From positions 12,476 through 76,475 of the forward strand of contig LZRV01000077.1 in assembly GCA_002159065.1 (NCBI GenBank): a DNA stretch of 64,000 bases, read 5' to 3'. Positions 10,969-62,719 of this stretch are shown here, one piece after another. The stretch's first letter is position 1. The number at the start of each line of letters is the position of its first letter. A program made the position numbers and the translations under genes. The notes beneath the pieces are model-generated. The model did not search any database and was not told the DNA's origin. It saw only the letters and a list, made by a program, of their open reading frames with translations. Source of the stretch: Paenibacillaceae bacterium ZCTH02-B3. Lineage in GTDB: Bacteria; Bacillota; Bacilli; Paenibacillales; Paenibacillaceae.

Positions 10969-10973
10969 ATCCA

Positions 10974-41006: not shown

Positions 41007-42562
41007 GAGATGTTCTCCCGGTCATCCCCCTTGCCTTCGCGCTTCGCCTGATACATCTTCTTGTCCGCGTGCCACAGGAGCAGGTCGATGGTATCGCCGT
41101 GTTCGGGATACCGGCTGATCCCGATGCTCAGACTGACTTCGTCCATGACCGGCCGGTTCGACATCTTCAGCTGCGCAAAGGCGTCGAGCAGCCGCCCGAC
41201 CCGATCCTCCACGTGGCCTTCATCCGGGTAATCGTCAAGGAATATGACGAATTCGTCTCCGCCGATGCGGGCCGCCATGCCGTCCGTTCCCGCCGTGTCG
41301 CTCATCAGGGCGGCGATCTTCACCAGCGCCTCGTCTCCCGTCTGATGCCCGTAGCGGTCGTTCACCGTCTTGAAGTTGTCGACGTCCACAAGCAGAAGCG
41401 CCAGCGGTTTCCGCCGTTCGGCCGGACGATCCAGCTTTTCCTGCAGCTTTTCCCGGAAGTGCCGGCGGTTCGGCAGTTCCGTAAGCGGATCGTGATAGGC
41501 GAGGTAGGCGATTCGCTTCTGCTGTTCGATGAACGGGGTGGCATCCCGAATGATGACCAGGATGTGCGGATGATGCTCGACGAGGATGTAGCCCGCGTCG
41601 ATCAGGGCGTGGATCGTTTTGCCGCCGCCGGAGATCGTCATCTCATGGTTTCTGACCTCCCGCTGACGTTCCACGAGCTCGCGGAAATTTTCGCCCAGAA
41701 TCGACCACAGATTATCCTGTTTCACGGCATGGGAACCGAACATCTCTTTGGCCCCGGGATTGGCTTCCTTGATGAGGCCGCCCGCATCCGCCAGGAGAAT
41801 CGCGGCCGGGTTGAGATGGAACAGCTTCTCGAATCTCCGGTCCGTAAAATTGAGAAAATCGTATTTCCGCATCGTGCGCCTGAGGAAAAAGAACCACACC
41901 ACGCCGCCGTAAAGATAGGGATACGGCGGAAGGGCGCTGCCGAATTCGATCAGGCCGAAAATGCCGAACCACGCCGCAGCCAGAACCACGCCGATGCCGA
42001 GATGCTTGTAAAGGTCGCGCATTTCCCGGTTCGCCGCCTGCCGTTTACCGATGACGAGCGGGATCAGGTACAGGAGATTGTTGATCACGCACAGCACCAT
42101 GGTGATATAGTAAGGCGTATTGTAGACCGGAAGTTTCCAGAGTCCCGATTCATAAAACCGGGTGACGGAAATGGTGGTGTCGATCCGCAGGAGGTTGATC
42201 ACGACCAGGATGACCGGCAGGTAAAAGATCCAGGGGTACACATACCGGGGCATCTTGCGGTCCAGTTTCGTCAGTTTGACGAAGAGGTGAAATCCGAGTC
42301 CCGGAATCAGGATGCCGGACGTGCTGAACCATACGGCGGCCACCACCGGACTGTATTCAATGGGAAGCTGGTGACGCACGTATTCCGCGAGGAACAGGTT
42401 CATGAAGCAAAGCGAAATCAAGCTGACCAGACGGTGTTCGATTTTCCTCGCGTCGCGGATCAGCATGTCGATGCTCATGAAGGCGAAATACAGGATCGGC
42501 ACGAAGTGGGTCAGCAAAGGGACAAAGACCTGCTGGGGTGTCATCGGGTTCACCGTTTTCAA
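41003..42562 (-). CDS. Membrane-anchored PAS-GGDEF diguanylate cyclase
   Basis: About 7 N-terminal TM helices, then a PAS-like region, then LLLVDVDNFKTVNDRYGHQTGD...RIGGDEFVIFL. The stop codons of this gene and the convergent SBP gene overlap (TTAG). Confidence 0.9.
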   Translation of the reverse strand: MKTVNPMTPQQVFVPLLTHFVPILYFAFMSIDMLIRDARKIEHRLVSLISLCFMNLFLAEYVRHQLPIEYSPVVAAVWFSTSGILIPGLGFHLFVKLTKLDRKMPRYVYPWIFYLPVILVVINLLRIDTTISVTRFYESGLWKLPVYNTPYYITMVLCVINNLLYLIPLVIGKRQAANREMRDLYKHLGIGVVLAAAWFGIFGLIEFGSALPPYPYLYGGVVWFFFLRRTMRKYDFLNFTDRRFEKLFHLNPAAILLADAGGLIKEANPGAKEMFGSHAVKQDNLWSILGENFRELVERQREVRNHEMTISGGGKTIHALIDAGYILVEHHPHILVIIRDATPFIEQQKRIAYLAYHDPLTELPNRRHFREKLQEKLDRPAERRKPLALLLVDVDNFKTVNDRYGHQTGDEALVKIAALMSDTAGTDGMAARIGGDEFVIFLDDYPDEGHVEDRVGRLLDAFAQLKMSNRPVMDEVSLSIGISRYPEHGDTIDLLLWHADKKMYQAKREGKGDDRENIS

Positions 42563-42786
42563 ATTTTTAGCCCATACCTAACAAGTTCGACAAATATCGC
42601 CTTTTCCCTGCGAATTTCGCGCATGACGCGAAAATTCGCCGTTTCCCGTGCCGTTCGTGCGCTTTCGCCTGATGCGCGACTTGAACACGCTCCTCCGCAT
42701 CTGGACTCGGGGGCGGTTCCGGAATACAATAGGATTGTTGCGATACCCCCTGGGGTATAAAAACGAGAGGAAAAGGAGGAAATCCA

Positions 42787-43095
42787 TTGTTCCGGACCGA
42801 ATCGCCCGCCGAAGTGCTGGAGAGGCTGAAACGCAACGAATCTTTCACCCTTCTTGACGTTCGGGAATACGACGAATGGGCGGAGGGACACATTCCGGGC
42901 GCCCTGCACATTCCGCTCCGCGAGCTGCCTTTCCGCCTGGGGGAACTGGACAGGTCGAAAGAGACGGTCGTCGTTTGCCTGAGCGGCGTGCGCAGCGCCC
43001 GGGCGTGCGAGTATCTTGCCTTGTGCGGCTACCGGGCGGTCAACATGGAAGGCGGCATGAAGCGCTGGCCCGGAGACGTCGTCTCCGGGCCGTGA
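42787..43095 (+). CDS. Rhodanese-like single-domain sulfurtransferase
   Basis: Contains LLDVREYDEWAEGHIPGALHIP and the active-site loop VVVCLSGVRSARA. Confidence 0.85.
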   Translation: MFRTESPAEVLERLKRNESFTLLDVREYDEWAEGHIPGALHIPLRELPFRLGELDRSKETVVVCLSGVRSARACEYLALCGYRAVNMEGGMKRWPGDVVSGP

Positions 43096-43107
43096 CCGGC
43101 ATCCCTG

Positions 43108-43308
43108 TCAAACGCCATATCGCGCATCGCAGATGGAACACATCGAGTATCCCGGCTTCTTGGGCCTTTTGCCGCACGCTACGCACAAATCCGATTTGGA
43201 CCCCCCGGCGACCTGCTCCAGATCCGATTTGCCAAGCTCCCGGTGATCCGGACGGTGTCCTTCCCGTCCGCCGGCTTCACTCCGCGCGTGAAGGTTTTCC
43301 CGATCCAT
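43108..43308 (-). CDS. Double-glycine leader peptide, four-Cys core (candidate RiPP precursor A)
   Basis: GGAGGAA lies 6 nt before ATG 43308. Leader ...RELGKSDLEQVAGG, core SKSDLCVACGKRPKKPGYSMCSICDARYGV. Confidence 0.6.
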   Translation of the reverse strand: MDRENLHARSEAGGREGHRPDHRELGKSDLEQVAGGSKSDLCVACGKRPKKPGYSMCSICDARYGV

Positions 43309-43450
43309 GCGTCATTCCTCCGTTTCGCTGGTTATGGTCTGCAAGCTTTCATTTCTTCGCGCTGCGTCCTTCCGATCCGCTTCCCGTTTCTCCGGGCCGG
43401 ATCTTCCCGTGTCCGTCTATCGGGCAACTCCGCTTTCCTTGGATGTTGGT

Positions 43451-43663
43451 TCATCCCTGCCGGGATTTCAAATTCACAAGGCATTTGGAGCAAAGATCGA
43501 ACCCCTGGACGGCCACGTTGTCGCAACCCGGGGTCGCGCACGGGTGAACCGATGCGCCGGTGCCGCCGAAAATGAATTCGAGTTCCTCATCGTTCAGTTC
43601 GCGATTCGACAGACCGCGTTCGCCGTCCTTTTCCCGTTCCGGACTGAAGCCTTCCCCGTTCAT
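43451..43663 (-). CDS. Double-glycine leader peptide, four-Cys core (candidate RiPP precursor B)
   Basis: GAAGGAA lies 6 nt before ATG 43663 (Met17 of the track ORF). Leader MNGEGFSPEREKDGERGLSNRELNDEELEFIFGG, core TGASVHPCATPGCDNVAVQGFDLCSKCLVNLKSRQG. Confidence 0.6.
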   Translation of the reverse strand: MNGEGFSPEREKDGERGLSNRELNDEELEFIFGGTGASVHPCATPGCDNVAVQGFDLCSKCLVNLKSRQG

Positions 43664-43701
43664 CTTCCATTCCTTCTTTTTCCTCGTGTTTTGGTATGCC
43701 C

Positions 43702-43745
43702 ATCGTAACATGCCATTTTAAAATGGAGTTTAAATTCCTTTTAAA
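43702..43745 (-). promoter_or_regulatory. Phased-repeat promoter in front of precursor B/A
   Basis: On the minus strand: TTTAAAAggaaTTTAAACtccaTTTTAAA, 9 nt (atggcaTGt), then TACGAT. The 7-mers are exactly 11 bp apart. Confidence 0.6.
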
Positions 43746-43748
43746 TCA

Positions 43749-44462
43749 TTATAAAATTTCCATCCGGTATCCGATGCCCCTGACGTTCTGGATGACGGAC
43801 AAATTCGAGACTTGCAGGATTTTTTTGCGCAGGGTGCTGATATGCACCGCCACCGTGCGAAAATCGTCCAGGCCGTCGTAGCCCCACACGATGCGGTAGA
43901 TTTCTTCGGGCTGAAAGACACGCTTCGGATTTTCCGCCAGCAGGACAAGCACCTTGAACTCTTTCGTGGTCAGTTGCACCGGGCGGCCTTCGACTTCCAC
44001 GGTGCAGCTTTCCAGATCGATGGTGAGCGGACCCAGCCGGATGACGCTTTTGGTTTCCTGGGCCGCCGCCAGCTCCTTCTTGCGTTTGATCAACAGGCTG
44101 CGGCGCAGGTGCGCCTTGACCCTGGCCACCACTTCCCCCTGGCTGTAAGGCTTGCTGATATAGTCGTCGGCTCCCGCCATGAGCCCCATGATCTTGTCCA
44201 TCTCGGAACATTTCGCGCTGATCATGAGAATCGGCACGTCCGTCAGCTTGCGCAATTCCTGGCAGATCATGACGCCATCGCCGTCCGGCAGGATCGCTTC
44301 CATGAGAATGAGATCCGGGGGATTGTCCCGCGCGCTCCGCAAGGCCGCGTCCGCCGAATGGCAGCCGGTGACGCGGTATCCGTCCGACTGAAGCGCCGTG
44401 CCGATCTCCCGACGAACCGCTTCATCGGGATCGGCGATCAGGATGAGGGGTTGCCCTTGCAT
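43749..44462 (-). CDS. OmpR/PhoB-family response regulator, orphan and atypical (Glu at the phospho-acceptor position)
   Basis: The REC domain reads LILIADPDE...PDLILMEAILPDGDG...ILMISAK...ISKP. The winged-helix output reads LTTKEFKVLVLLAENPKRVF...VRGIGYRM. The start is taken at ATG 44462. The TTG at 44534 lies too close to a TATAAT at 44555-44550. Confidence 0.85.
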   Translation of the reverse strand: MQGQPLILIADPDEAVRREIGTALQSDGYRVTGCHSADAALRSARDNPPDLILMEAILPDGDGVMICQELRKLTDVPILMISAKCSEMDKIMGLMAGADDYISKPYSQGEVVARVKAHLRRSLLIKRKKELAAAQETKSVIRLGPLTIDLESCTVEVEGRPVQLTTKEFKVLVLLAENPKRVFQPEEIYRIVWGYDGLDDFRTVAVHISTLRKKILQVSNLSVIQNVRGIGYRMEIL

Positions 44463-44613
44463 CGGGAAACGGTCTCCTTTACCTCGGTTTTCGGCCATAC
44501 CCATACGATACGAGACATTTCGCTCTATTCGCAAGATTCGTTACTTTCCATTATAATCCGGGAAGGAAAAAAATCTATTCAAACCCAGTTTTTTAGCGGG
44601 GATGGTTTGAAAT

Positions 44614-44668
44614 TTTAAACAGAATTTAAACTTGATTTAAACCAGTTTTGAATGTTGTGTGGTATCTT
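44614..44668 (+). promoter_or_regulatory. Phased-repeat promoter in front of the three plus-strand Nif11-type precursor genes
   Basis: TTTAAACagaaTTTAAACttgaTTTAAACcagtTTTGAAT with 7-mers at 44614, 44625, 44636 and 44647. This is followed by 9 nt (gttgtgTGg) and then TATCTT (44663-44668). Confidence 0.65.
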
Positions 44669-44751
44669 TTGATCACAACGAACGAACGATTCTTCCGTGA
44701 ATCCATATCCGTTCGATCACATCCGCCTAATCTCAAAGGAGGGAATTCCCA

Positions 44752-45093
44752 ATGTCGCTCACAAACGCGCAAGCCTGGTTGGAAAAGGTTCGGACCGACC
44801 CCGATCTTCAGGCCAAAATCCGGGAACTGGCCCCCGAACAGCCGGACCGGATTCTGGACGCCCTCGTGGCCGCCGGTGCGGAGGCCGGTTACGCGTTCGG
44901 CAAGGAAGATTTGCTGCAAGCCGCCAAAGAGGCGGTATCTTCCGCCGCCGGGAGCCCGGACGAGCTGGACGAAGAACAGCTGGAGCTGGTGGCCGGCGGC
45001 GACGATACGATCCTGTACGTTTTAGGGTCCATTATCACGGCGGGAATTGGATGTGCCATGCTTGGCTTGAAGCATGCCATCAAAGGTTCCTGA
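44752..45093 (+). CDS. Nif11-type leader peptide precursor 1
   Basis: RBS GGAGGG. Leader MSLTNAQAWLEKVRTDPDLQAKIRELA...EEQLELVAGG, core DDTILYVLGSIITAGIGCAMLGLKHAIKGS. Confidence 0.85.
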   Translation: MSLTNAQAWLEKVRTDPDLQAKIRELAPEQPDRILDALVAAGAEAGYAFGKEDLLQAAKEAVSSAAGSPDELDEEQLELVAGGDDTILYVLGSIITAGIGCAMLGLKHAIKGS

Positions 45094-45172
45094 AAAGAAA
45101 CCCGCGTCAGGGGACCCGGGTACCCCTTCATCCCTCGAATCAACACCCCTAAATTGACTGGGAGGAGATCCA

Positions 45173-45562
45173 ATGTCGTTGGAAAGCGCTCAAGCCTGGT
45201 TGGAAAAGGTCCGGGCCGACTCCGAGCTTAAGGCCAAAATCCTGGAACCGGCCGCCGGACAGCCGGACCGGATTCTGGACGCCCTCGTCGCCGCCGGTTC
45301 GGAGGCCGGTTACACATTCAGCAAGGATGATCTGTTGCAAGCCGTCAAAGAGGCCGTTTCCGAAATCGTCGCCAGGCGAACGGACGGCCTGGACGAAACG
45401 CAGCTGGAATCGGTGGCCGGCGGCGTTTCGGAGGACGTCATTGCGTACTCCTTTGGATCGTTTGGCTTCGGATGTCTCGTATCGTGGCTTCAGGGCTGCG
45501 ATCTTGAAGAAGAAGCGAAAAAAGCGAATAGACCGCCCGGTCCCTATGATCCTTCCTACTGA
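45173..45562 (+). CDS. Nif11-type leader peptide precursor 2
   Basis: RBS GGAGGAG. Leader MSLESAQAWLEKVRADSELKAKI...ETQLESVAGG, core VSEDVIAYSFGSFGFGCLVSWLQGCDLEEEAKKANRPPGPYDPSY. Confidence 0.85.
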   Translation: MSLESAQAWLEKVRADSELKAKILEPAAGQPDRILDALVAAGSEAGYTFSKDDLLQAVKEAVSEIVARRTDGLDETQLESVAGGVSEDVIAYSFGSFGFGCLVSWLQGCDLEEEAKKANRPPGPYDPSY

Positions 45563-45686
45563 CGATTCGTTCGCCTGCAGGCGATTCACCCTTGCGGGCT
45601 CTTCTCGCGCCGCCGGTTCGGTTTTGCTTTCGGCTCCGGGTCCGTTCGGCGCACTTCATCCAACACAAAGACGGGGAGGGATGACC

Positions 45687-46034
45687 ATGTCTGTAGAAAA
45701 TGTCAAGTCGTTCCTGGAAAAAGTGCGGTCCGACTCCGGCTTGCAAAGCCGCATCGGCTCCCTGGCGTCGGACAAGCCGGTTGACGCGAAGGAGGATTGG
45801 TTCCTGGACAGCCTGGTCGCCATCGGCGCGGAGTCCGGCTTTGCGTTCAGCAGGGAGGATTTGCTGCAGGCCGCCAATGAGATCAGGCATAACGCGGTTT
45901 CCGGCGAACTGGACGACGCCCAGCTGGAATCGGTGTCCGGCGGTCTCGATCTCTTCTGGCATATTGTGTTTTCTTTTGCCGTCTTTGGATGCATAGCCGT
46001 AGAAATTGTGGAATGGGGCGAGAAATTGGAATAA
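45687..46034 (+). CDS. Nif11-type leader peptide precursor 3
   Basis: GGGGAGGG lies upstream. The start is ATG 45687 (MSVENVKSFLEKVRSD...), with 45681 as an alternative. The leader ends DAQLESVSGG and the core is LDLFWHIVFSFAVFGCIAVEIVEWGEKLE. Confidence 0.85.
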   Translation: MSVENVKSFLEKVRSDSGLQSRIGSLASDKPVDAKEDWFLDSLVAIGAESGFAFSREDLLQAANEIRHNAVSGELDDAQLESVSGGLDLFWHIVFSFAVFGCIAVEIVEWGEKLE

Positions 46035-46061
46035 CAAGAATCGGAAAAGCCGTACCGGCGT

Positions 46062-47582
46062 TCAGCCTTCCGTTCTGATCCGGATCCGCCCTTCGCTCCC
46101 GTAATCGACAGACCCTTTTTCCCGCGTCAGTTTCTTTGCATATTGAATCAAGGCGTCGGTCAGGACCCCCGCGTCTTCGTCGACGACCCTGCCTTCAAAC
46201 CGGTATCCGTCGCCGCCCGTGCCAAGGAAATCCGGCACGGCGACCCGGTAGACCCGATCCGGATCGACGGGCTGCCCGCCAATGGCAAGCTCCGCGGACC
46301 TGAACGCGCCGGACCCGTCGGTCACGATGACGTAATGCAGGCCCGACGTCTGCAGGTCGACCCGGTTTCTGCCCTGACGCGTATACGAGTATTCGATCAC
46401 GTCCCGCAGGGCTTTGCCGGTCATTTCCACGATCATCACCCGGTTCTGGAACGGCTCGATCCGATGGATGTCGCCCACGGTCATGTCGCCCGGCGCGATC
46501 TCGTTGCGGATGCCGCCGTTGTTCGTGAAGGCGATCTCCGCGTTGTACGCGTCGCGCATGGCGTCCGTCCAGAAATTGCCGACGGGGACGTCTTTTTCAT
46601 ATAATCCTTCCGCGGACAATCCGGTCGCGGTGCGGCCGATGACTTCGCTCAGGAAGGCTTCCAGTTCCTTCTTGTAGCCTTCCGCCTTATCCCGCACCGC
46701 CGCATCGGTTTCCTTGAGTTCTGCCGTCGGCTGCAGCCGGCTGTCCGCAAGTTTCGTTTGTCCGGTCGCGCGATCCAGTTCCAGCTTCACAACGCCGATG
46801 TATCGCAGATCGGCGCCGGCCCGCACGATGGGCGTGCCGTTCACCACTTCGGGACCGCCCGGCGGAGTTTCCCCGCTGCCGCTCACGATCAGGTCGAACA
46901 GGTCGAACCGCTCGGCGAGCCGGCGGTCTTCCTCATCGCCGATGTGCGTGAGCGCGATCAGGATATCCGCCTCGCCGCGCAGGCTGGCGAAACGCTCCAC
47001 GGTGGAGGCGTAATCCCGGAATTCCAGGCCGACGATCCCGCTCCGGCGCGTCTCCGGAGGCGCCTCGGTGATCCCGAGCACGCCGACCTTCACGCCGTCG
47101 AATTCAAACAGGGCATAGGGCTGCGGCTGCCTGATGGGGATCGAAGGGTCCGCCACCTCCATATTGGCGCTGAGCCACGGAAAACGGGAGTCGGCCATGT
47201 TGCGGGCGAACTGTTCCTGTCCGTAGTCAAAATCGAGATTGCCCACCGTCATGGCGTCGAGCCCGGCATCGTTCATCAGATCGATCATGGGCTTGCCTCG
47301 CAGGATGTCCACCACGGGATTGCCTTTGAACATGTCCCCCGCGTCCAGGTACAGCGCGGGACCGGCGGCCTTCGCGTCTTTGACGAAGCGGGCCAGTTGG
47401 CCCGCCGGATCGACGTTGCCGTGCATGTTCGCGGTGTGCAGGACGGTCAGGGTAAAGCGGCCGTTTTTCCCCTCCTCTTCCGGCGATGCTTCGCGGTCCT
47501 TTGGGGCGCAGGCCGCGGCCCCCGGGACTAGCAGGGTTGCGACAAGGGCGACGAGGAACCATTTTCGCGACATGCGTTTCAT
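46062..47582 (-). CDS. Bifunctional metallophosphatase/5'-nucleotidase-like lipoprotein (UshA/YfkN family)
   Basis: Signal peptide and lipobox MKRMSRKWFLVALVATLLVPGAAACA. Motifs include TVLHTANMHGNV, DAGDMFKGN and GNLDFDYG, plus a C-terminal nucleotidase domain. The start is taken at 47582. Confidence 0.8.
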   Translation of the reverse strand: MKRMSRKWFLVALVATLLVPGAAACAPKDREASPEEEGKNGRFTLTVLHTANMHGNVDPAGQLARFVKDAKAAGPALYLDAGDMFKGNPVVDILRGKPMIDLMNDAGLDAMTVGNLDFDYGQEQFARNMADSRFPWLSANMEVADPSIPIRQPQPYALFEFDGVKVGVLGITEAPPETRRSGIVGLEFRDYASTVERFASLRGEADILIALTHIGDEEDRRLAERFDLFDLIVSGSGETPPGGPEVVNGTPIVRAGADLRYIGVVKLELDRATGQTKLADSRLQPTAELKETDAAVRDKAEGYKKELEAFLSEVIGRTATGLSAEGLYEKDVPVGNFWTDAMRDAYNAEIAFTNNGGIRNEIAPGDMTVGDIHRIEPFQNRVMIVEMTGKALRDVIEYSYTRQGRNRVDLQTSGLHYVIVTDGSGAFRSAELAIGGQPVDPDRVYRVAVPDFLGTGGDGYRFEGRVVDEDAGVLTDALIQYAKKLTREKGSVDYGSEGRIRIRTEG

Positions 47583-47610: not shown

Positions 47611-48750
47611 TTATCCATCGGTTTTCGTCTCATCGGCCAGCCGGCGGAATCCTTCATCGTCGGCCAATTCCTCCAGCGTGAACCGCGAGAGCGTCAGGAT
47701 GAGCCGCGCCTTCTCCTCATGGGAGAGCTTCCCGCCGGGAAACCGGCGGTTCCATTTTTCCAGCCGCCGGGCGGCTTCGACGACCAGCCCTTGCAAAATG
47801 GCGAAGGCGCCGTCGGACAGCGTTCCCCGGTACTGGTGAATCCGTCCGTCCGGACGGCAGTCCGGGTAGCGTTCCAGGCCGAGGAAACGCAGGAACCACT
47901 CCGCCCGGTATTCGCCCGCCGCGACGATGATCGCGACGAAGTCGGCAATCAGCTCGTCGAGCAGCCGGGTGCGCATCGCGCCGAGCACGCGCCGGGTGAA
48001 ATAGTGGACGGATTCGTGTTCCAGGCGGATGGCCAGCGACAGCATCCGCCATTCGTGCTCCGGAAGCCCCATTTCCGCCGCGCCGACCTTGCTGTAGGGT
48101 CCGTCGGTCACGATGGCAAAGCGGTCCAGGTACAGTTCCTTCGGGAGCTCTCCCCCTTCACCCGATGGTTCCCGCCCGTCCCGGTGCCGTTTCAGCCGGT
48201 CCCAATTGCGATAGCCGGATATCAGGCAGGCGCCCATGGTGTCGGGGATCGGTTCCGGTTCGTTTCTCCGGACCAGGGCCTGGACCAATGCGACGAAATC
48301 GCTCCGCTCGCGGACGACGATGACAGGCAGGTGTCCGGCCGGCGTCGGGTGAAAAATCAGCTCGAGGCTGTCCGGGCTTCGCAGGATGAGTCCCGTCGCT
48401 TCGGGTATGCCCCGGGGATTTGCGCCCTGGCGGGTCACCGCCTGGTAGGCGGCCGTCGAGCTCATGCCTTCCCGGACCGGAAACCGCAGCTGGACCAGCT
48501 TCTCCTTCAGCACGGGAAACACGCCGGTCCCCCGGGCTTCCTCCGCGTAGCGCCGCCAGTCGGCGACAAACGGCTCGTCGTCCAGCGGATACTTCTGCGG
48601 AGGCGGATGCGCAAACACGTTGTCATTGTAGGCAAGCAGTTCTTCCGCTACCCGCCCGGTCGCGCCGAAGCGCGCGAGCACTTCCCTTCGAAGCGTGATC
48701 GGATCCACGGCCGCCTCCGGTTTGAGAAGATTTTCGCGCGACGTGCACAT
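47611..48750 (-). CDS. Uncharacterised 379-aa protein with an HExxH motif, encoded 4 nt after lanM
   Basis: The start is taken at ATG 48750, because Met1 of the track ORF lies inside lanM. HESVH is encoded at 48004-48018 within LAIRLEHESVHYFTRRVL. I recognise no family. Confidence 0.7.
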   Translation of the reverse strand: MCTSRENLLKPEAAVDPITLRREVLARFGATGRVAEELLAYNDNVFAHPPPQKYPLDDEPFVADWRRYAEEARGTGVFPVLKEKLVQLRFPVREGMSSTAAYQAVTRQGANPRGIPEATGLILRSPDSLELIFHPTPAGHLPVIVVRERSDFVALVQALVRRNEPEPIPDTMGACLISGYRNWDRLKRHRDGREPSGEGGELPKELYLDRFAIVTDGPYSKVGAAEMGLPEHEWRMLSLAIRLEHESVHYFTRRVLGAMRTRLLDELIADFVAIIVAAGEYRAEWFLRFLGLERYPDCRPDGRIHQYRGTLSDGAFAILQGLVVEAARRLEKWNRRFPGGKLSHEEKARLILTLSRFTLEELADDEGFRRLADETKTDG

Positions 48751-48754
48751 GTTC

Positions 48755-51700
48755 CTATCGCAATACACTTTGGATTTCCGCGGGAGCCGCGCACCGCAGC
48801 AAGGTATAGCCGATCCCCGAGATCCCCTGGAAAAAGGACGGATTGAACCAGGCGCCCCCGTCGCCCCCGTGAAGCAGATAGTGCCCGTTTCTCCGCTTGC
48901 GGGCGATGACCGCCCCCGCTTTCCGCCTTGCTTCCTCCAGCAGATCCGGCCGGCCAAGCGCAAGCGATGCCTCGACGAGAAAGTCGATTTTGCCCGCGTT
49001 GCCGCAGCAGACGTGGTCGTTCATTTCCAGCGTGCACGTGCGGGCAAATTCCACCGCGTTTTCGACGTCCCGCATGAACCGCCGGCGCAAGTTCCGTTCC
49101 CCGTCTTCCCCGCTTGCTGCGGCTTCCGCCTCTGTCCCGGCTTCGACGCCTGTTCCGGTTTGCGCGCTTTTTCCGGCATTCCCGCCGTCCGCGCCGGCGG
49201 TCAGCATGGCAATGCGGGCCAATCCGACGCCGGGAGCGCCGCTGCACCAGCCCGGCATGAACGCCGCACCGCCGCCCGCCGCCTGTACGGCCTTCTCGCG
49301 CAAATCCGGCCAATTGCCATGCTTTTCGTCATACAGGCTGTTTTCATAATCCACCGCTTCCATGGCCGCGTCCCGAAACGCCCGTTCTCCCGTCGCCCGC
49401 CACAGGCGGTACAGGGCGGCGGCATAGCCGGCCGCGCCGTGACCCATCCCCGTGAGAGGTTCCGGGGCGATTCCGGTGGTCCAGACCCGGTGGCCCGACT
49501 TCGCCCGCACCCGGGATTTCAGCAAATGTTCGCCGCACCGTTTCGCCAGATCGAGGAGATCGCCGCTCTTTTCGGAGCGGTGCAGATCGAGGAGCACCAG
49601 GATGAGGCCTGCCGCCCCGCCGAGCACGTCCAGCCAGCGGTCGCCGTCGATCTGTTCCGGCCGGATCCGGCGCACAAGCCACAGGGCGGCTTCCGTCAGG
49701 CCGGGTTCTCCCAGATAATCGCCCATGACCGCCAGACCCCTGACGATGCCCGCCAGGCCGCTTCCCAGTCCCAGGGGCATCCGGTACGCCGGGAACGGAT
49801 GATCCCGGTCGTTCAGGCTTTTCAGCAAAGGATTCAAGGCCTGGAGGACCGTTTCCCGGATCGCTTCCTTCCCCGTCAGCCGGTACAGGGCGGCCATGAA
49901 CACGCCCAGGCCGGCCAGTCCGTCGTAGAAGCCGAAGCCGATCCGGCCGAGGGTCATTTTTTGGGCCTGCAAATGATACTGCCGCACGATCCACGTGAAA
50001 TCCCCGTCCGCTCCCACGATCCGCCTGGCCATGATTTCCTCGCAGATGCCGGCGGCTTCCCCGATCAGAAGTTCGTCGCCCGGATCTTCCGGTTCCGCCG
50101 GGACGCGGAATTTGTCCGGCCTCTGGTTACGAGTCCGCTCCGGCGTCCGGCCCGGCGTCGGGTCCGGCAGCCGGTCCGGGGGCTGTTCCGAAGTCCGGTC
50201 CGGGGGCCGCTCCCCCGCCGCATGGGACGGCTCCGAGGCCATGGACAGGGCCGTCCTGATGAGATCGATCTGCGCGTTTTTGTCCCGTTCGTCCATGCGC
50301 CGGATCAGGGCTTTCGCCCGGTCGAAGGCGCTTTCGAGAAAATAGCCCGGATGAAGCGTCCCGCTTCCGTCCTCGAGGGCCAGATTCCGCGCGTGCCCGT
50401 AAAAGATCGGGACGTCCCGGTTTTCCAGCGCGTCCCGCTCCGCGCAAAACACCTTCCACAGCTCCCGCAGCCCGTCGTCGGGCGCCGCGATCAGGTAGGC
50501 CGGAGCCAGGCGTTCCACTTCGAAGGAATAGAGCAGTCCGTCGCGGAGAAACCCGGGCTGGGCGGCATGGTTCAGCACATCGGCATAAACTTGCGAGTTC
50601 CGGATCAGGATGCGGAACCGGCACGTTCCGAAAGCGTCGAGCGGCGACGTTTCCCCCGCGTGTTCTCCCAGGATCCGGGGCTTCTCCCCGGCGATCCGGT
50701 CGTAAGCCCACGCGAATCCGGCCAGCAGATGCTCCTCGTAATCCCGCACATCCAGCGGCCGGCCGTCCAGAACGGGCAGATGGAGACCGCGCTCTTCCCG
50801 GCAGGTGAGCGCCCCCCAGTCCGCCGCCTTCCCCTGGGCGTTCACGTGCCAGTACGGCAGCATGCCGACGCGCAGGACCGAATCGCCAAGGGTATCGAGG
50901 GCCAGATCGGCCGCGCTTTTGCCGCTTTCCCCCAGATGGAACGGTTTCACCCGGTGCAGAAGCAGCGTTTCCAGATCGACGGGGACGGGATGGGCGCCGC
51001 TGGCGATCAGGTTTTCGAAATGAAAGTCGTTTCCGCCCAGCGCGTAGATCGTGCCGAGGAGAACACCGGCCCGGAAATAGAAGGCCGCGGCGTCCTCTGG
51101 CCGCGTGAGCGGCCTTCGCTCCACGAATTCCGCCCAGCCGTGGTCTCCCTCGTCCAGCACCCGGGGCGTCCACAGCCGGTGGGGAATTCCGTCCCGTTCC
51201 AGGAAGCGGATCCATTCGTTCCAGGCGGCGTCAATGGCCAGGCTCCTGGGCTTGTAAACGAGTCTCAGGCCGGATTCGAAGGCGAGAAGAAGAACGGTTT
51301 TGCCCCCGTTGTGGACATCGGACGCGTTCGCCTCCACCGCGGTTACCCGCCCAAGCGGCCTGCCTTCGTGAAACGCCTCTTCCAGCTTCATCTGGTCCGC
51401 CGCGAGGCGGGCGGCGAATTCCGCCAGATTCCTCTTCCATTGGCCGATCGCCTGCACCATGAACCGGGCGAGGACGGGATGCTCCGCCAGCACGTCCTTC
51501 CATTTTCCCGCCGCAAGTTCCGCCAAATACGCTTTCCATTCCGCCTGCCACTCCTCGTGGAAGAACGAGGGTCCAAGCAGGAGATGCAGCGGTTTTTTGC
51601 CGCTCATGGCCGCCAGAAAACCGGCGCGGCACGTCCGGAAACTAAGCGTTGCCAGCCGCTTGGCCAGCGCCCTGCGCATGTCCCGTACGGCGGAATCGGC

Positions 51701-52156
51701 GAACAACCGGAGTTTCTCCCCAAGCCTTCCGGCCAGCTGCTCGCAGGCATCCTCCAGAAACGGCTCCAGGGCCGGGGTCGGATCCCACAACCCTTGGCCT
51801 TCTTCCGGCGGCGAAGCGGACATCCGCTGAAGCCGCGACAAGATGCGCTCCAGTTCCCGCACCCATTCGGGAAGGGGCGTTTCCGCCTTCCAACGCACGG
51901 GGCCGAGCAGCCGTCCGGCCTCGTCCGGCGAAAGTCCGTCCAGGGCGAGGCGTTTGCGAAACGCCGTCTCTCCGCCGCTTCCGCCGGCTTTTTTCCGCCA
52001 GCGGGCAAACAGGTCCTCACGGACCCCGGGCGGCGCCTCCCCGATCTCGACGGACCCCGCCCGCGACAGTTCCAGCCGTTCTTTGAGAAACAGCGCCCTG
52101 CCGGCGATTTCGCGCCATTCGTTCTCCGTGAACACGGCCATTCTAGACACCCGCAT
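48755..52156 (-). CDS. lanM: Class II lanthipeptide synthetase LanM (dehydratase + LanC-like cyclase), ProcM-like CCG type
   Basis: 1133 aa. The dehydratase motif is GGNDFHFENLIASGAHPVPVDLETL. The cyclase motifs are GMGHGAAGY, GWCSGAPGVG and VCCGNAGKIDF. The start may be Met6 (52141). Confidence 0.9.
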   Translation of the reverse strand: MRVSRMAVFTENEWREIAGRALFLKERLELSRAGSVEIGEAPPGVREDLFARWRKKAGGSGGETAFRKRLALDGLSPDEAGRLLGPVRWKAETPLPEWVRELERILSRLQRMSASPPEEGQGLWDPTPALEPFLEDACEQLAGRLGEKLRLFADSAVRDMRRALAKRLATLSFRTCRAGFLAAMSGKKPLHLLLGPSFFHEEWQAEWKAYLAELAAGKWKDVLAEHPVLARFMVQAIGQWKRNLAEFAARLAADQMKLEEAFHEGRPLGRVTAVEANASDVHNGGKTVLLLAFESGLRLVYKPRSLAIDAAWNEWIRFLERDGIPHRLWTPRVLDEGDHGWAEFVERRPLTRPEDAAAFYFRAGVLLGTIYALGGNDFHFENLIASGAHPVPVDLETLLLHRVKPFHLGESGKSAADLALDTLGDSVLRVGMLPYWHVNAQGKAADWGALTCREERGLHLPVLDGRPLDVRDYEEHLLAGFAWAYDRIAGEKPRILGEHAGETSPLDAFGTCRFRILIRNSQVYADVLNHAAQPGFLRDGLLYSFEVERLAPAYLIAAPDDGLRELWKVFCAERDALENRDVPIFYGHARNLALEDGSGTLHPGYFLESAFDRAKALIRRMDERDKNAQIDLIRTALSMASEPSHAAGERPPDRTSEQPPDRLPDPTPGRTPERTRNQRPDKFRVPAEPEDPGDELLIGEAAGICEEIMARRIVGADGDFTWIVRQYHLQAQKMTLGRIGFGFYDGLAGLGVFMAALYRLTGKEAIRETVLQALNPLLKSLNDRDHPFPAYRMPLGLGSGLAGIVRGLAVMGDYLGEPGLTEAALWLVRRIRPEQIDGDRWLDVLGGAAGLILVLLDLHRSEKSGDLLDLAKRCGEHLLKSRVRAKSGHRVWTTGIAPEPLTGMGHGAAGYAAALYRLWRATGERAFRDAAMEAVDYENSLYDEKHGNWPDLREKAVQAAGGGAAFMPGWCSGAPGVGLARIAMLTAGADGGNAGKSAQTGTGVEAGTEAEAAASGEDGERNLRRRFMRDVENAVEFARTCTLEMNDHVCCGNAGKIDFLVEASLALGRPDLLEEARRKAGAVIARKRRNGHYLLHGGDGGAWFNPSFFQGISGIGYTLLRCAAPAEIQSVLR

Positions 52157-53294
52157 CCAGGTACTCGAACTTGCCGCCCGTCACCTTCTTCAGCACGACG
52201 AGGTCGCCGATGTCCTCCCCGTTCCGGTCGAAGGTGTGGAACCCGGCGACGCCTTCCCAGTTTTCGATGGTATGAAGGGCAGCCGCGATGTCGCGGGGGA
52301 CGATCGACCGGGCCCGGTTCATGGCCTCGGCCAGCAGGTGGACGGCGTCATACCCCTGCGCGGAATATTGGGTCGGCATGGTGCCGTAAGCCCTGTTGAA
52401 AACATCGATGAACGCCTTCACCTTTTCCCGCCGGCTTTCGGGGTTGAAGAAGGCGCCGATCACCATGCCTTCCGCGGCCTTCGCCCCGGCGATGCTCCAC
52501 AGGTTCGGCGTGTCCATGGCGTTCCCCGCGAACAGCGGAACCCCGATGCCGGCCGCCCGCAGCTCCGCGACGAGCTGCGCGCCCGCCGCGCCCGACTTGG
52601 CGATGAAGATCCCGTCGTACTCCAGGATCTCCCATTTGAACTTGAGCCGCTCCAGTTCCGACGGTCCGGTATAGAAGGTCAGGCGGTCCACAATGTCGAT
52701 GCCGGAACGGCCCGCGTGTTTTTCAAAGGCGTCCGCCAGCCCCTTCCCATAGGCGTCGTCGTCGTACAGGATGACCATCCGGCGGTGTCCGTTCCGGGCG
52801 GCGTAGTTGGCCACGGAGGCGGCCACCTGCTCGTCGCTGGCGATGTTGCGGAACACGAGCCGCTGCTTCTCGCTGATGAATTCGGGAGCGCTGGAAGCGG
52901 GAGACAGCATGAGGATGCCGGCCCGTTCATAGATGGAGGAAACCGGAATGGACACGTAGGAATTCCGATGCCCGATCACGGCCACCACCTGGATGTCCTC
53001 CGAGAAAGACTGGGCGATTTCCAGCCCTTTCGTCACCGAGGATTCGTCGTCCTTGATAATGACGTTCAGCTGGCGCCCCAGCACCCCGCCGTCGGCGTTG
53101 AGTTCCGACACGGCAAGGGCAACGCCTTCCAGGAACCAGTCGTTGGCGGCGGAGATGGGCCAGGCCACTCCGATCGAAATGGGACCCCTGTGGCGCTTGG
53201 CGAAGGCTTCGCGCTCTTGCGCCGTGGATGCGACCGAGCAACCGGCAACGGCCATCGCCAGCAAGAGGAGGATGGCAATCGGCAAGCGTCTCAT
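52143..53294 (-). CDS. LivJ-like (Peripla_BP_6) ligand-binding lipoprotein
   Basis: GAAAGGAGAT lies upstream of ATG 53294. Lipobox LLAMAVAGCS. Contains ISIGVAWPISAANDWFLEGVALAVSELNADGGVLGRQL. It overlaps the annotated lanM start by 14 nt. Confidence 0.85.
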   Translation of the reverse strand: MRRLPIAILLLLAMAVAGCSVASTAQEREAFAKRHRGPISIGVAWPISAANDWFLEGVALAVSELNADGGVLGRQLNVIIKDDESSVTKGLEIAQSFSEDIQVVAVIGHRNSYVSIPVSSIYERAGILMLSPASSAPEFISEKQRLVFRNIASDEQVAASVANYAARNGHRRMVILYDDDAYGKGLADAFEKHAGRSGIDIVDRLTFYTGPSELERLKFKWEILEYDGIFIAKSGAAGAQLVAELRAAGIGVPLFAGNAMDTPNLWSIAGAKAAEGMVIGAFFNPESRREKVKAFIDVFNRAYGTMPTQYSAQGYDAVHLLAEAMNRARSIVPRDIAAALHTIENWEGVAGFHTFDRNGEDIGDLVVLKKVTGGKFEYLDAGV

Positions 53295-54583
53295 GCTTTG
53301 ATCTCCTTTCCAACCCGCACGGGACGGGACGCCTTGACCGCGGAACCATTGACGAGAATGGTCGACGCGCAGGCCAAATGCACGTTCAGCATCGTCAGGA
53401 TCGGGTCGACGATGGGCGTGACCGCGAGCAGCAGCACCACCGCCGTTTCCGAAGGAAGCCCCAGCGGCGCCAGAATGATGCCGATCATCGACAGCGAGAC
53501 GAGGGCGGGAGCCCCCGCGCCCGAGAGAGCGGCCAGGATGGAAGCCAGGAGGACCGTCGCGATTTGCCCCGGGCCCAAGGGCACGCCATACAGCTGGGCC
53601 ACAAAGATCGTCCCGACGGAAAACATCGTCACCATGCTGTACCGGCAAAGGATGATGCTCAGGGGAGTCACGAAATTGACCGTTTTCTCCTCCAGCCGGT
53701 AACGCGCGCGCAGCGCCTGGAAGATGAACGGCAGCGTCGCCAGGCTGTTGCGGGTGCCGAAGGCGATGAGCAGCGGCTGTTTGAGGTCCGCCGTCGACCG
53801 CACCAACGAACGCCCGGTCAGCTTCCAGATCAGAACCGCGCTCAGGAGCAGGATGATCAGGCACGCGAGATGGATCAGGACGATGAATTTCGTCATGGCC
53901 GCCAGCAAATCCATTCCCATCGACGCGAACTGGCCGGCCATCAGGCAGAGCAGCCCGACGGGCAGTCCGTAGATGCTCCAGCCGATGATCCGCTCGAAAG
54001 CCTTGTAGATCACCTCGATGACGTCCAGGACGTCGTCCCGCTTTTTCTCGCGGACGGTACCGATGGCCACGCCGAACACCATGGCCACGAACAGCACCTG
54101 CAGGTTCTGTTCGCCGAGCAGCGATTCGAACAGGTTGGTCGGGATGATCATGGCCAGAAAATCCATCACCGTAAAGGCGCCCTGCGTTCCGGACTGGCCG
54201 CTGACCATCGCCTCTCCGCCCATGATCGCGTTTCCCAGCACTTCCCGCGCGCGCTGATCCAGGCCGGTCCCCGGATTACCGATCAGCCCCACGCCGACGC
54301 CGATGAGGCTGACCAGCAGCAGGCCGGTGGCGAAGGTCAGCACCGTCCGCTTCAGGTAACGCACCGCCTCCCGCGAAGCCATGAGCTTGCCCAGGCTGGA
54401 GATGATGGCCGTCACCATGATGGGAACGACCAGCATTTTTAAAAAGGAAAGATACAATTCCCCGACGGGGGCGATAAACAGGGCGACATTCCGATCGTAG
54501 AGCCCCAGCAGAATGCCGATCGCCATCGCGGCCAGGGACGTGCCGGGCCGCTTGAGCCATTCCAGTTTCGCCATGGGTTTCAC
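53291..54583 (-). CDS. Dicarboxylate/amino acid:cation symporter (DAACS / SDF family)
   Basis: 430 aa. Contains LYLSFLKMLVVPIMVTAIISSLGKL and TRNSLATLPF plus a SxS-type reentrant-loop region. It has 4-nt overlaps with both neighbouring genes. Confidence 0.85.
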   Translation of the reverse strand: MKPMAKLEWLKRPGTSLAAMAIGILLGLYDRNVALFIAPVGELYLSFLKMLVVPIMVTAIISSLGKLMASREAVRYLKRTVLTFATGLLLVSLIGVGVGLIGNPGTGLDQRAREVLGNAIMGGEAMVSGQSGTQGAFTVMDFLAMIIPTNLFESLLGEQNLQVLFVAMVFGVAIGTVREKKRDDVLDVIEVIYKAFERIIGWSIYGLPVGLLCLMAGQFASMGMDLLAAMTKFIVLIHLACLIILLLSAVLIWKLTGRSLVRSTADLKQPLLIAFGTRNSLATLPFIFQALRARYRLEEKTVNFVTPLSIILCRYSMVTMFSVGTIFVAQLYGVPLGPGQIATVLLASILAALSGAGAPALVSLSMIGIILAPLGLPSETAVVLLLAVTPIVDPILTMLNVHLACASTILVNGSAVKASRPVRVGKEIKA

Positions 54584-55512
54584 TCCGTCCCCCGGCCCGG
54601 TTCGCCGGGCGAATTGCCGTACCGGTCAAGCAGCTGGCCGATGTCCAGCGGCGGCAGATAGGCCAGATATTCCTTCAGCCATGCCTGCATGTGGAAGTGG
54701 CTCGGCGGAATGGCGACGGCCAGGTTGTCCTTGCGCCCTTCCAGCACGACAAATTGCAGATCCAACAGGACGTCCGGAAATTCGTTGATGTGCCGCTGGA
54801 ACTCGAACTCGTCGTAAAACGCGGCCGCGATGTCTCCCCGCCGCACGTCTTCCAGCATGCGCTCCCTCGAATCATACGGAACGACTTCCGACGCGTGGAA
54901 AATTTCCCGGGCAAATTCCATGTAGGATGTTCCCGCCATGGCGCCGATTTCCACCGGGTTGGTCCGCAGCAGTTCGATCGGGTCCGTCATCTGCCGGGTT
55001 TTCAGGGCGGCCAGCCGCATCCGGTTGACGAGCAGCGCCTGCCTCAGCGACAGATACGGTTCGCTGAACAGCACCCGCTGGGCGCGGTTCAGCGTGATGC
55101 TGATCTTCGAGACGGCCATGTCGTACCGGCCCGCGGCCACCAGATCGATGAGCTCTTCAAACGACCGCGCCGAGCGGTCGAACCGGACCTCCGCGACGCC
55201 CAATTGGCGGGCGATGTCCCGGGCCATTTCCACGTCGCTGCCGACCAGTTCTCCCCGCTCGTCCACAAAGAAAAAGGGAAAGCGGTCTTCCGCATACATG
55301 CCCACCGTCAGGTAGCCGTTTTCATGGATCCGCCGAAATTCGTCGGGCAGCGTCGGAAAATACCGGGGGTCCATCGTTTTCACGGGCTCGGGCGAGCCGT
55401 TTGGCCTCGGCGTTCCGCTTGTCTCGGGCCCGTTGCCGGCGGGAGCGCCGCATGCGCCAAGGATTGCCGACAGGACCAGTGCGGCCAGGAAGGTTTTGAA
55501 TTCCCGATTCAT
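54580..55512 (-). CDS. Amino-acid-type solute-binding lipoprotein (SBP_bac_3)
   Basis: Lipobox AILGACG followed by a Pro-rich linker. Contains YLTVGMYAEDRFPFFFVDERGELVGSDVEMARDIARQLG. Confidence 0.8.
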   Translation of the reverse strand: MNREFKTFLAALVLSAILGACGAPAGNGPETSGTPRPNGSPEPVKTMDPRYFPTLPDEFRRIHENGYLTVGMYAEDRFPFFFVDERGELVGSDVEMARDIARQLGVAEVRFDRSARSFEELIDLVAAGRYDMAVSKISITLNRAQRVLFSEPYLSLRQALLVNRMRLAALKTRQMTDPIELLRTNPVEIGAMAGTSYMEFAREIFHASEVVPYDSRERMLEDVRRGDIAAAFYDEFEFQRHINEFPDVLLDLQFVVLEGRKDNLAVAIPPSHFHMQAWLKEYLAYLPPLDIGQLLDRYGNSPGEPGRGTE

Positions 55513-60367: not shown

Positions 60368-60384
60368 TGCGGAACGCACCCGCC

Positions 60385-61344
60385 TCATTTGAGCTGAGGG
60401 AAGATCTTCGCCAGGGGCGGCGAATCTTCCACCGTGATGATGCCGTTCACCAGCGTCCCGCTTTGGATGGGAACGGGCGGGCCATCCGAGCTGGACCATT
60501 TATAGCCGCTTTCCGTGCCGGCGTCCGGAATCAGATGAACCCTCACTTCGATGGGAGCGCCCGCCCCGGCCAGCGTTCTCGCCAGATCTTCGTTGCCGAG
60601 CACGTTGACCATTCCCTGGAAGGTCGAAGGAAACTCGTTGACGCGGGTGACCCGTCCGAGCAGATATCCGTAGGTTTCTTTCGAAATGGAAGCCGCCTCG
60701 AGCTTCACTTCCATCCCGGGATGGATCCGCTTTCCGTCGCCGGGCGACACGTACAGGACGGCCTCGAGGGTGTTCAGCTGCTCTCCCGCCTGCTCGATGG
60801 TGGCCACCTGGGCCCCCCTGGGGATATATTCGCCGCGCCGCACTTTCACCTCGACGACTTTGCCCGAGTACGGGCTGACGATTCTGGTCGCGAGATTCAG
60901 CTGGTCCCTCAGGGCGTCCAGTTTCTCGCGCAACTCCCGCACCAGGGGCTGGTCGTCCCCGGCTCCGGCGGCGAGCAGGCTGCGGAGCTGGGCTTCGGTA
61001 AACTGGATCTCGCTCAGGATTTCCGGTTGCTGGAGCCGCGCGACCACTTCGCCCTTTTCGATGAAATCGCCGGTCCCGACCCGGATGTCCGACACCTGTC
61101 CGCTTTCGGTGGTCACGATGGTCTGGATCCCGCCCGAACTGATCAGGATGCCCTGGCCGTACACGTTCACCGGCAGACTTCCGGCGAATCCCCAGACGAC
61201 AATGGCCCCGAGCAGGGCAACGACGCCGGCGAGGGCGATCCACGACCGCCAGGAAATGACCGTAAGCAGCCGGTCGAGCTGCTCCGGCGATTCCAGAGAT
61301 TCAAGAGACGCTTTGCGAAAAAGCTGCTGATTCCTCATCGCCAT
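60385..61344 (-). CDS. HlyD-family secretion adaptor (NHLM bacteriocin secretion protein type)
   Basis: The start is taken at ATG 61344. Contains MAMRNQQLFRKASLESLESPEQLD, a single TM helix WIALAGVVALLGAIVVWGF, and coiled-coil plus barrel-sandwich regions. Confidence 0.85.
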   Translation of the reverse strand: MAMRNQQLFRKASLESLESPEQLDRLLTVISWRSWIALAGVVALLGAIVVWGFAGSLPVNVYGQGILISSGGIQTIVTTESGQVSDIRVGTGDFIEKGEVVARLQQPEILSEIQFTEAQLRSLLAAGAGDDQPLVRELREKLDALRDQLNLATRIVSPYSGKVVEVKVRRGEYIPRGAQVATIEQAGEQLNTLEAVLYVSPGDGKRIHPGMEVKLEAASISKETYGYLLGRVTRVNEFPSTFQGMVNVLGNEDLARTLAGAGAPIEVRVHLIPDAGTESGYKWSSSDGPPVPIQSGTLVNGIITVEDSPPLAKIFPQLK

Positions 61345-61574
61345 CGTCAGGATCTCCCTCCGCCCATTCAGGCCGCTCCCCGCCCCGGCGCACGCGGAGC
61401 CGCCGGACAACGCTTGCAACCTCGCCGTATCGATTTTTCCGGTTTATTTCCGAAATTCGTCGTTTTCCAGCGCTTTTTGCGGAAACCCTTTTATTTGTTC
61501 CACAATCGTCCCGCTTTTTCCTTCCGGGTTGTCCCGACATCTTGTCGTTTCATGCCGGACGCGTCGCCATTTCA

Positions 61575-62128: not shown

Positions 62129-62238
62129 CTTGATTCACTCCGCTTCTTTATTTCTGTCCATAAAAAAATATCTTCTTAAACGTGAATACAGTTAAAATCC
62201 GTCCAAAAAAACCGGATGGCAAAACGAACGCGTCGGCG

Positions 62239-62574: not shown

Positions 62575-62616
62575 CTTGATTCCCTCCATCGCGGAATTTC
62601 CTGATCGGCTGACTCT

Positions 62617-62671
62617 ACAATAACACGCTATGTTAAAGAACAGTTAAAATTTTTATAAAAACTCATTTAAA
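62617..62671 (-). promoter_or_regulatory. Phased-repeat promoter in front of precursor 5 (and probably 4)
   Basis: On the minus strand: TTTAAATgagtTTTTATAaaaaTTTTAACtgttCTTTAAC, 9 nt (atagcgTGt), then TATTGT (62622-62617). Confidence 0.6.
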
Positions 62672-62719
62672 ATCGGTCCGATCGGAAATCCGCGGGAGCA
62701 GGCGGAAGATCGACGGAAC

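Follow-up and report, generated by a model that had tools for sequence, protein, structure and literature searches.

The closest described relatives of the system discussed here are the substrates of peptidase-containing ATP-binding cassette transporters (PCATs) that carry a double-glycine (GG) leader, such as class II bacteriocins, CtA of PCAT1, and the peptides of NHLP/Nif11 export (TIGR03794, TIGR03796, and TIGR03797). Two small genes, A and B, in a 64,000-nucleotide stretch of DNA from Paenibacillaceae bacterium ZCTH02-B3, a metagenome-assembled genome (hereafter the window; a literature search on ZCTH02-B3 found no paper) encode peptides that resemble these substrates in their leader ends, which read ELxxxxLExVxGG with hydrophobic residues at positions -4, -7, and -12, in the presence of an export set at the locus, and in the combination of conserved leaders with variable cores. 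However, what they are predicted to carry is a zinc-finger-like fold, hydrophilic and of the Cys4 or Cys3His type, rather than a membrane-active helix or a modified core, and the N-terminal part of their leaders (M-D/N-x-E ... G-x-E/R-G) matches no NCBIfam or Pfam leader model. With prochlorosin-type Nif11 precursors, which are accompanied by a LanM synthetase of the CCG type, A and B have in common their cluster, the ~13 residues that end the leader, and a promoter box, and in prochlorosin-type systems, as here, one enzyme and exporter set serves multiple hypervariable cores; in contrast to those precursors, A and B are without a Nif11 domain, their cysteines appear to be kept as a metal site and not as Ser/Thr-Cys pairs, and they have relatives without a LanM.

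Two other groups invite comparison. The A20 (PF01754) and WRKY19 (PF24906) fingers resemble the cores of A and B in ligand spacing, in the Gly or aromatic residue before the third Cys, and in the helix, predicted for A and B, that begins at the third ligand, but they are intracellular, often repeated, and eukaryotic or actinobacterial, whereas A and B have a single copy behind a secretion leader. A GG leader joined to a Cys-rich core, as in A and B, is also found in certain radical S-adenosylmethionine (SAM) ribosomally synthesized peptides with post-translational modifications, or RiPPs (TIGR04149, ranthipeptide/SCIFF-like). B and a metagenomic relative, P0014, match TIGR04149 weakly (E 0.006-0.023), far below its cut-off, and no radical SAM gene was identified among the cluster open reading frames (ORFs) scanned (~43-64 kb of the window). 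The known Cys-rich GG RiPP families in NCBIfam were rejected as a home for A and B, having given sub-threshold matches only.

In the account that we favor, while holding it evenly poised between right and wrong, A and B are cargo of an NHLP-type C39 exporter: peptides that metal or disulfides keep stable, that are regulated jointly with the lanthipeptides of the same cluster, and that LanM probably does not modify. The preliminary description of this DNA, made from the sequence alone, had offered two options, namely lanthipeptides made by the same LanM or unmodified metal-binding or disulfide peptides exported by the same machinery; the second is favored by the constancy of the ligands, the occurrence of His among them, the loss of Ser, the profile matches, the compact knuckle-and-helix models of the cores, and a related array without LanM, and the first is disfavored. 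Tentatively, and somewhat short of evenly balanced in our judgment, the locus may exemplify a GG leader that exports a self-folding zinc-finger mini-domain, a hypervariable extracellular scaffold (antimicrobial, metal-scavenging, or signaling) that would need no modifying enzyme, would occur in at least two Bacillota classes, and would undergo whole-core swapping.

Gene B lies at 43451-43663 on the minus strand and encodes 70 residues (MNGEGFSPEREKDGERGLSNRELNDEELEFIFGG / TGASVHPCATPGCDNVAVQGFDLCSKCLVNLKSRQG), divided into a 34-residue leader (43562-43663, C-terminal end ELNDEELEFIFGG) and a 36-residue core (43454-43561) with the pattern C-x4-C-x10-C-x2-C. Gene A follows on the same strand at 43108-43308 and encodes 66 residues (MDRENLHARSEAGGREGHRPDHRELGKSDLEQVAGG / SKSDLCVACGKRPKKPGYSMCSICDARYGV), with a leader of 36 residues (43201-43308, C-terminal end ELGKSDLEQVAGG) and a net basic core of 30 residues (43111-43200; C-x2-C-x11-C-x2-C). 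Both ORFs are where the preliminary description had placed them, within 43108-43663, with the sequences it gave, and the ribosome-binding sites that it had assigned to both correspond to a Shine-Dalgarno sequence ahead of each gene (AAGAAGGA for B, kept in three other lineages, and GGAGGA for A); the spacing that it had put at x11/12 is x10 in B and x11 in A. A longer alternative B ORF from 43711 extends into the promoter and is not conserved. Because the Shine-Dalgarno sequence and start codon of B are kept in the related loci L001, L012, and L005, the ATG at 43663 is the likely start.

It might be supposed that two such short ORFs, annotated merely as hypothetical proteins, are chance reading frames of intergenic DNA. 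The two peptides are identical to the deposited hypothetical proteins OUM99155.1 and OUM99156.1 (BAA02_01645 and BAA02_01640, Paenibacillaceae bacterium ZCTH02-B3), and P0003, an exact match of peptide A, is likewise annotated as hypothetical. The ORFs are conserved in four lineages with a ratio of nonsynonymous to synonymous substitution rates (dN/dS) below 1, and their Shine-Dalgarno sequences and promoters are conserved as well. In a six-frame scan, the GG-leader motif combined with the four-ligand motif was found in two ORFs of the window and in none of 100 simulated sequences (second-order Markov), and no Rfam family matched in 42500-46200. The chance-ORF reading is effectively refuted, and A and B are real, conserved genes. 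They are under purifying selection: between the window and L001, dN/dS is ~0.12 for the leaders of B and A and 0.65 for the B core.

Across 16 cores, the only invariant features are three Cys and a fourth ligand position, spaced C-x2/4-C-x9-12-C-x2-C/H in a knuckle of ~25 residues. Two cores, P0004 and P0006, have His as the fourth ligand, a substitution compatible with a metal site and not with a thioether or disulfide partner, and this is the strongest sequence argument for metal binding. The C-S-x-C element that had been described as shared survives as ligand positions; its Ser is not conserved, CSKC being replaced by CAKC, CADC, CRDC, and CKEC in relatives. B (x4/x10/x2) and A (x2/x11/x2) both have the A20/WRKY19 spacing, C-x2-4-C-x9-11-C-x2-C/H, and all of the sub-threshold Pfam matches of single cores are to zinc-binding modules. 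When the core profile was aligned to the PF24906 repeats with hhalign, the probability was 95% (E 3e-8), a partly circular result as the repeats were themselves hits of the HMMER search described below. Among PDB sequences, the cores match best the A20 zinc finger of TNFAIP3 (2eqg; E 0.008).

In the AlphaFold2 models, the core is a knuckle or hairpin with a helix at its C-terminal end, beginning at the third ligand, and the predicted local distance difference test score (pLDDT) for the core is 88-91 in B and ~87 in A. The best Foldseek match of B is A20 ZF7 (3vuw_F), with a template-modeling (TM) score of 0.77 on the target, a root-mean-square deviation of 1.1 Å over 29 columns, and an E-value of 4.8; peptide A gave RING matches only, none of them significant. 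The profiles and models suggest that the cores are treble-clef, A20/WRKY19-like zinc-finger modules, which would most likely bind Zn(II). The zinc ribbon named as an option in the preliminary description is a little wide of the mark, as the best matches are to treble-clef fingers of the A20/WRKY19 type.

The leaders, for their part, look like signals for export. The double-glycine consensus calls for GG (or GA/GS), hydrophobic residues at -4, -7, and -12, and an acidic residue at -8 or -13, and the last 13 residues of both leaders match it, with V-4, L-7, L-12, and E-13 in A and I-4, L-7, L-12, and E-13 in B; the earlier assignment of a GG cleavage motif is borne out. GG and the hydrophobic pattern are present in all 16 family members, from two bacterial classes, and the leader N-terminus (M-D/E/N-N/R-E) is alike in both classes. 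The last 13 residues of A (ELGKSDLEQVAGG) and B (ELNDEELEFIFGG) also closely resemble the leader ends of the five Nif11 precursors in the cluster, e.g. ELDEEQLELVAGG. Membership of A and B in the Nif11 family (TIGR03798 / PF07862) was nonetheless rejected, with no match to the Nif11 domain even at E <= 10, compared with 37-50 bits for the neighboring precursors. The B leader weakly matches the lichenicidin A2 family (E 0.019), and weak profile matches to CtA and to bacteriocin signal sequences were obtained as well. AlphaFold2 leaves the leaders disordered except for a short helix over ELxxEELE.

The exporter that would read these leaders is encoded in the same cluster. On the minus strand are ABC1, with a C39 peptidase domain (58211-60499; TIGR03796 1130 bits against a cut-off of 853; Peptidase_C39 1.2e-39), ABC2 (55527-58187; TIGR03797 928 bits, above the NCBIfam cut-off), and a HlyD-like adaptor (60385-61419, ORF limits approximate; TIGR03794 314 bits, above cut-off), which by these family matches constitute a complete NHLP-type (NHLP bacteriocin) export set. 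The LanM cluster with a C39 exporter that framed the preliminary description is indeed present, its export set above the NCBIfam cut-offs. LahT150, a C39 domain, requires only the final 13-14 leader residues (PMC6363468). Given this requirement and the resemblance of the leader ends to those of the Nif11 precursors, cleavage after GG by the ABC1 C39 domain and export of the core is the best-supported step of the putative pathway.

As we envisage it, the prepeptides would be translated with a leader that is predicted to be disordered save for the amphipathic ELxxxxLExVxGG helix and a core that folds by itself, most likely around Zn(II). The C39 domain of ABC1 would then read the last ~13 leader residues, near-identical to those of the co-resident Nif11 leaders, and cut after GG, and ABC1, ABC2, and HlyD would export the 36- and 30-residue cores, steps that we infer from what is known of these families. 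LanM would probably be unnecessary. Outside the cell the hypervariable cores, kept together by metal or by a pair of disulfides, might function in competition or in interaction.

Relatives of A and B are few. An exhaustive HMMER search of 1.84 billion representative proteins gave 18 hits, and word-index protein searches returned very close relatives only. Because collection scans for further loci failed, the breadth of the family rests on that one HMMER search: a pattern scan of genome contigs (alignment A2) gave 142 pattern matches with none confirmed, and alignments A8 and A9 had no matches in metagenome contigs. Syntenic loci occur in three further Paenibacillaceae lineages (L001, L004/L012, and L005), and the B homologues are P0002, P0007, and P0011. 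In L001, B' is accompanied by a complete third peptide, C' (P0005), and by A' with a wholly different Cys3His core (KKCSIRNCPETATHGNLCAKHYY); L004/L012 has B'' (CRQC...CADC) and A'' (Cys3His); and in L005 the B type is represented by P0011 and the A type by P0009, whose core is of the same Cys4 type as that of A in the window.

Beyond this group, a Clostridia metagenome-assembled genome (MAG; GCA_017445115.1) contains an array, L010, of eight tandem GG-leader genes at 9335-11152, seven with C-x4-C-x9-12-C-x2-C cores and one without Cys. The array is flanked by an ammonium transporter gene and ychF, and no LanM, radical SAM, or PCAT gene was found inside 10 kb. P0014 lies on a 1.7 kb metagenome contig (L008) alongside other GG and weakly Nif11-like peptides; an ORF upstream of it was considered as a radical SAM SPASM fragment (CxxCx5Cx3C) and was set aside, as Pfam gave no confirmation. 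The long proteins that were matched, through the core region only, are multi-repeat zinc-finger proteins and significant members of PF24906 (Zf_WRKY19).

Whether similar peptides occur at homologous LanM loci elsewhere had been named as a check, and the syntenic Paenibacillaceae lineages have them. A LanM scan of genome contigs yielded one locus, in Paenibacillus sp. HJGM_3 (42% identity), where no GG/Cys peptide is present in the stretch covered, which extends just 3.2 kb downstream. All short homologues retain the GG and none is an ordinary intracellular protein, both points on which the preliminary description had staked its reading. No Pfam or NCBIfam model covers the A/B family, and a literature search on GG-leader zinc-finger peptides was without result; the family is rare and unannotated.

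Comparison between lineages indicates how leader and core have evolved. In a DNA alignment of A with A' of L001, identity in the leader is ~95% as far as the GG codons, the cores have no similarity, and similarity returns after the stop codon, a pattern that points to replacement of the A core as a cassette exactly at the GG boundary. Between B and A, at approximately 43345-43425 on the minus strand, is the remnant of a C-type peptide gene, in which ATG has become ATA and a deletion of ~190 bp has removed the core and the remainder of the leader; it was recognized by DNA alignment to L001, where the gene is intact as the GG-leader/Cys4 gene P0005. Leaders that stay constant while cores diversify or are exchanged, together with paralogues gained and lost, make up the signature of secreted bacteriocin-like peptides and not of a housekeeping regulator.

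The promoter of B ties the two peptides to the lanthipeptides. Three phased TTTAAA direct repeats with a period of ~11 bp lie at 43717-43745 on the minus strand, right after the stop codon of a response-regulator gene and upstream of B, and a second copy precedes the plus-strand Nif11 operon (44614-44641, plus strand, upstream of its first gene). The arrangement TTTAAA-N4-6-TTTAAA-N4-7-TTTAAA occurs at exactly these two sites in 64 kb (0 expected by chance; spacers N5, then N5/6), which confirms the claim that B has the same phased repeats upstream as the Nif11 genes; a degenerate version is found at 62644-62672 (minus strand), upstream of the Nif11 pair at 61766-62589. L001, L004/L012, and L005 all retain the box ahead of B. 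This box is presumably a response-regulator box overlapping the -35 region, and downstream of it a -10-like hexamer, TACGAT (43702-43707, minus strand), could complete a promoter; the window shares the conserved string g(t/c)TACGAT with L001, L012, and L005.

The regulator itself (43749-44462, minus strand), directly upstream of B, belongs to the OmpR family (Pfam Response_reg and Trans_reg_C). Glu occupies the position of the phospho-acceptor Asp (LILMEAILPDGDG; LME aligned to LLD of a canonical regulator), the N-terminal acidic pair is altered, and the L004 regulator has Glu in the same position. No histidine kinase adjoins the regulator at the locus, and with Glu for Asp and no kinase neighbor, classical phosphorelay control is probably not in operation; the protein looks like an atypical, phosphorylation-independent orphan. 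Since the boxes are conserved and shared with the Nif11 operons, we infer that it binds the phased repeats and would activate the B-A unit through them, and co-regulation of this unit with the Nif11 lanthipeptides is likely. A specific link between this regulator and one near the Clostridia array was considered and rejected, 36% identity being generic.

Several findings weigh against export as folded, unmodified peptides. Zinc fingers normally operate in the reducing cytoplasm, and no secreted precedent was found. Single cores fall below the Pfam thresholds (PF24906 15.7-17.6 bits against a cut-off of 27, best E 0.003; PF01754 8 bits), and the Foldseek E-values of the core models are non-significant, the value of 4.8 for B reflecting how small the fold is. 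The Paenibacillaceae loci are all syntenic orthologues, so that the association with LanM and exporter is one observation and not four, and the independent lineages come down in effect to a single Paenibacillaceae clade, the Clostridia MAG, and one fragment. The Clostridia array is also without a nearby exporter or modifying enzyme in the 10 kb searched. Finally, every LanM-linked core has Ser/Thr shortly before its first Cys, and an N-terminal lanthionine ring is possible.

This last point leads to the proposal that A and B are a second class of LanM substrate, in which LanM would bind the ELxxBxGG helix, dehydrate Ser/Thr, and form at least one lanthionine ring before C39 cleavage and export. 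The LanM (48755-52156, minus strand; DUF4135 and LANC_like, TIGR03897 691 bits) is 5 kb away and in the same regulon, and its cyclase domain carries a CCG motif, which we take to be a mark of substrate-tolerant ProcM-type enzymes. Class II leaders may be short, and the lichenicidin A2 likeness of the B leader also speaks for the proposal, as do the sequences before the first Cys: Ser/Thr is found 2-9 residues ahead of it in 9/9 LanM-linked cores and 5/8 others, a contrast that is weak and non-independent, with SDLC common to A and P0009, SVHPC common to B and P0002, and TKC besides. The internal Ser, however, is not conserved, and several variants are short of Ser/Thr for four rings (CADC in B'' and CKEC in P0009); two variants have His as the fourth ligand, a ring to any ligand Cys would abolish a site that is always kept, related arrays are without LanM, and neither A nor B has a Nif11 domain. 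Moreover, truncated leaders are not accepted by DprM, a LanM whose own leaders are long, structured, and of the NHLP kind (PMC12537861), an argument by analogy only, since both the enzyme and the leader type are others than here. With no Nif11 domain, the DprM analogy, and family members that occur without LanM, recognition of A and B by LanM seems less likely than export by the C39 system, and we consider it doubtful that they are LanM substrates. A single N-terminal ring in the LanM-linked cores is possible, because Ser/Thr precedes the first Cys in every one of them and the LanM has the CCG motif.

The kinship of the core with intracellular zinc-finger repeats, the position of the genes directly downstream of a transcription factor, and the stability of zinc sites in the cytoplasm would all suit small intracellular zinc-finger proteins that are never secreted and act as regulators, or as decoys with a leader-like tail for binding LanM or the exporter. 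We judge this improbable: GG and the hydrophobic residues at -4, -7, and -12 are kept in every member in two bacterial classes, core replacement, hypervariability, and paralogue loss would be unexpected for a regulator with a fixed partner, and the eightfold tandem expansion in the Clostridia is typical of secreted peptide arrays. Nor do A and B readily pass for GG-type peptide pheromones that auto-induce the cluster via the adjacent response regulator, even though the B-A unit carries the presumed box of that regulator and adjoins it, and GG-leader pheromones are often encoded next to two-component genes. No histidine kinase lies next to the regulator, kinase signaling is unlikely given the Glu at its phospho-acceptor position, folding cores of 30-36 residues are unlike the known short linear pheromones, and a signaling role is difficult to square with cores that are swapped while no receptor co-varies; we regard a pheromone role as very improbable.

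If, as we favor, A and B are exported as folded zinc-finger or disulfide knuckles, exporters of the bacteriocin type carry a cargo for which no description was found, and the smallest autonomous metal-binding fold would be employed extracellularly as well. Genome mining should then count more peptides as products of RiPP or bacteriocin loci, because the A and B genes match no current precursor model. Peptide engineering would also gain a scaffold that is compact, hypervariable by nature, and equipped with an export and cleavage tag that is already known. Should LanM, on the other hand, modify A and B, a promiscuous synthetase would be seen to handle a pre-folded, zinc-competing substrate.

The remainder of the cluster, which extends from ~62.6 kb to 43.1 kb with B and then A at its end, is ordered as two Nif11 genes, the HlyD-like adaptor, ABC1 (C39), ABC2, three solute-binding or transport genes, and LanM, and then DUF7005, a 5'-nucleotidase, three plus-strand Nif11 genes, the OmpR-family regulator, B, and A. 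The window encodes five Nif11 precursors. Three are on the plus strand (44752-45093, 45173-45562, and 45687-46034), match Pfam Nif11 and TIGR03798 above cut-off, and have hydrophobic cores with 1-2 Cys; two are on the minus strand upstream of the export genes (61766-62128 and 62239-62589), and one of these has a core without Cys. Between LanM and the 5'-nucleotidase is a DUF7005 protein of 365 residues (47611-48708, minus strand) with an HExxH motif (LEHESVHYF), which may serve the cluster as a metallopeptidase or as a modifying enzyme; a literature search on DUF7005 found no paper. It appears to be dispensable for the peptides, since the L005 lineage is without DUF7005 yet carries both peptide types. 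A Peripla_BP_6 protein, an SDF symporter, and an SBP_bac_3 protein (52143-55512, minus strand) separate LanM from the ABC exporters, and these three genes hold the same place in all related lineages.

Two longer proteins encountered in the searches also combine GG leaders with Cys-containing segments. P0010, in a cyanobacterial MAG (L018, 8001-9446), has 481 residues made up of ~10 tandem units, each with a GG leader (IELSEEDLEAIVGG) and a short core, C-x4-C-G-x-NHNETL; it adjoins a haem-oxygenase-like/cupin protein and an ATP-grasp gene and may be a multi-leader, multi-core RiPP precursor. P0013 (240 residues, on a 1.4 kb Logan contig) has four GG-leader-like repeats followed by a C-terminal classical zinc ribbon (CPKCGG...CADCG), and by its sequence appears to be a further protein in which GG leader and zinc-binding module are combined.

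On the other side of A, a single-domain rhodanese gene (42787-43095, plus strand) is convergent with it, and the same convergence is seen in every Paenibacillaceae lineage. The 3' end of the rhodanese gene, just past the stop codon of A, contains a perfect hairpin (CCCGGAGACGACGTCTCCGGG; 43063-43095) that may serve as a shared terminator.

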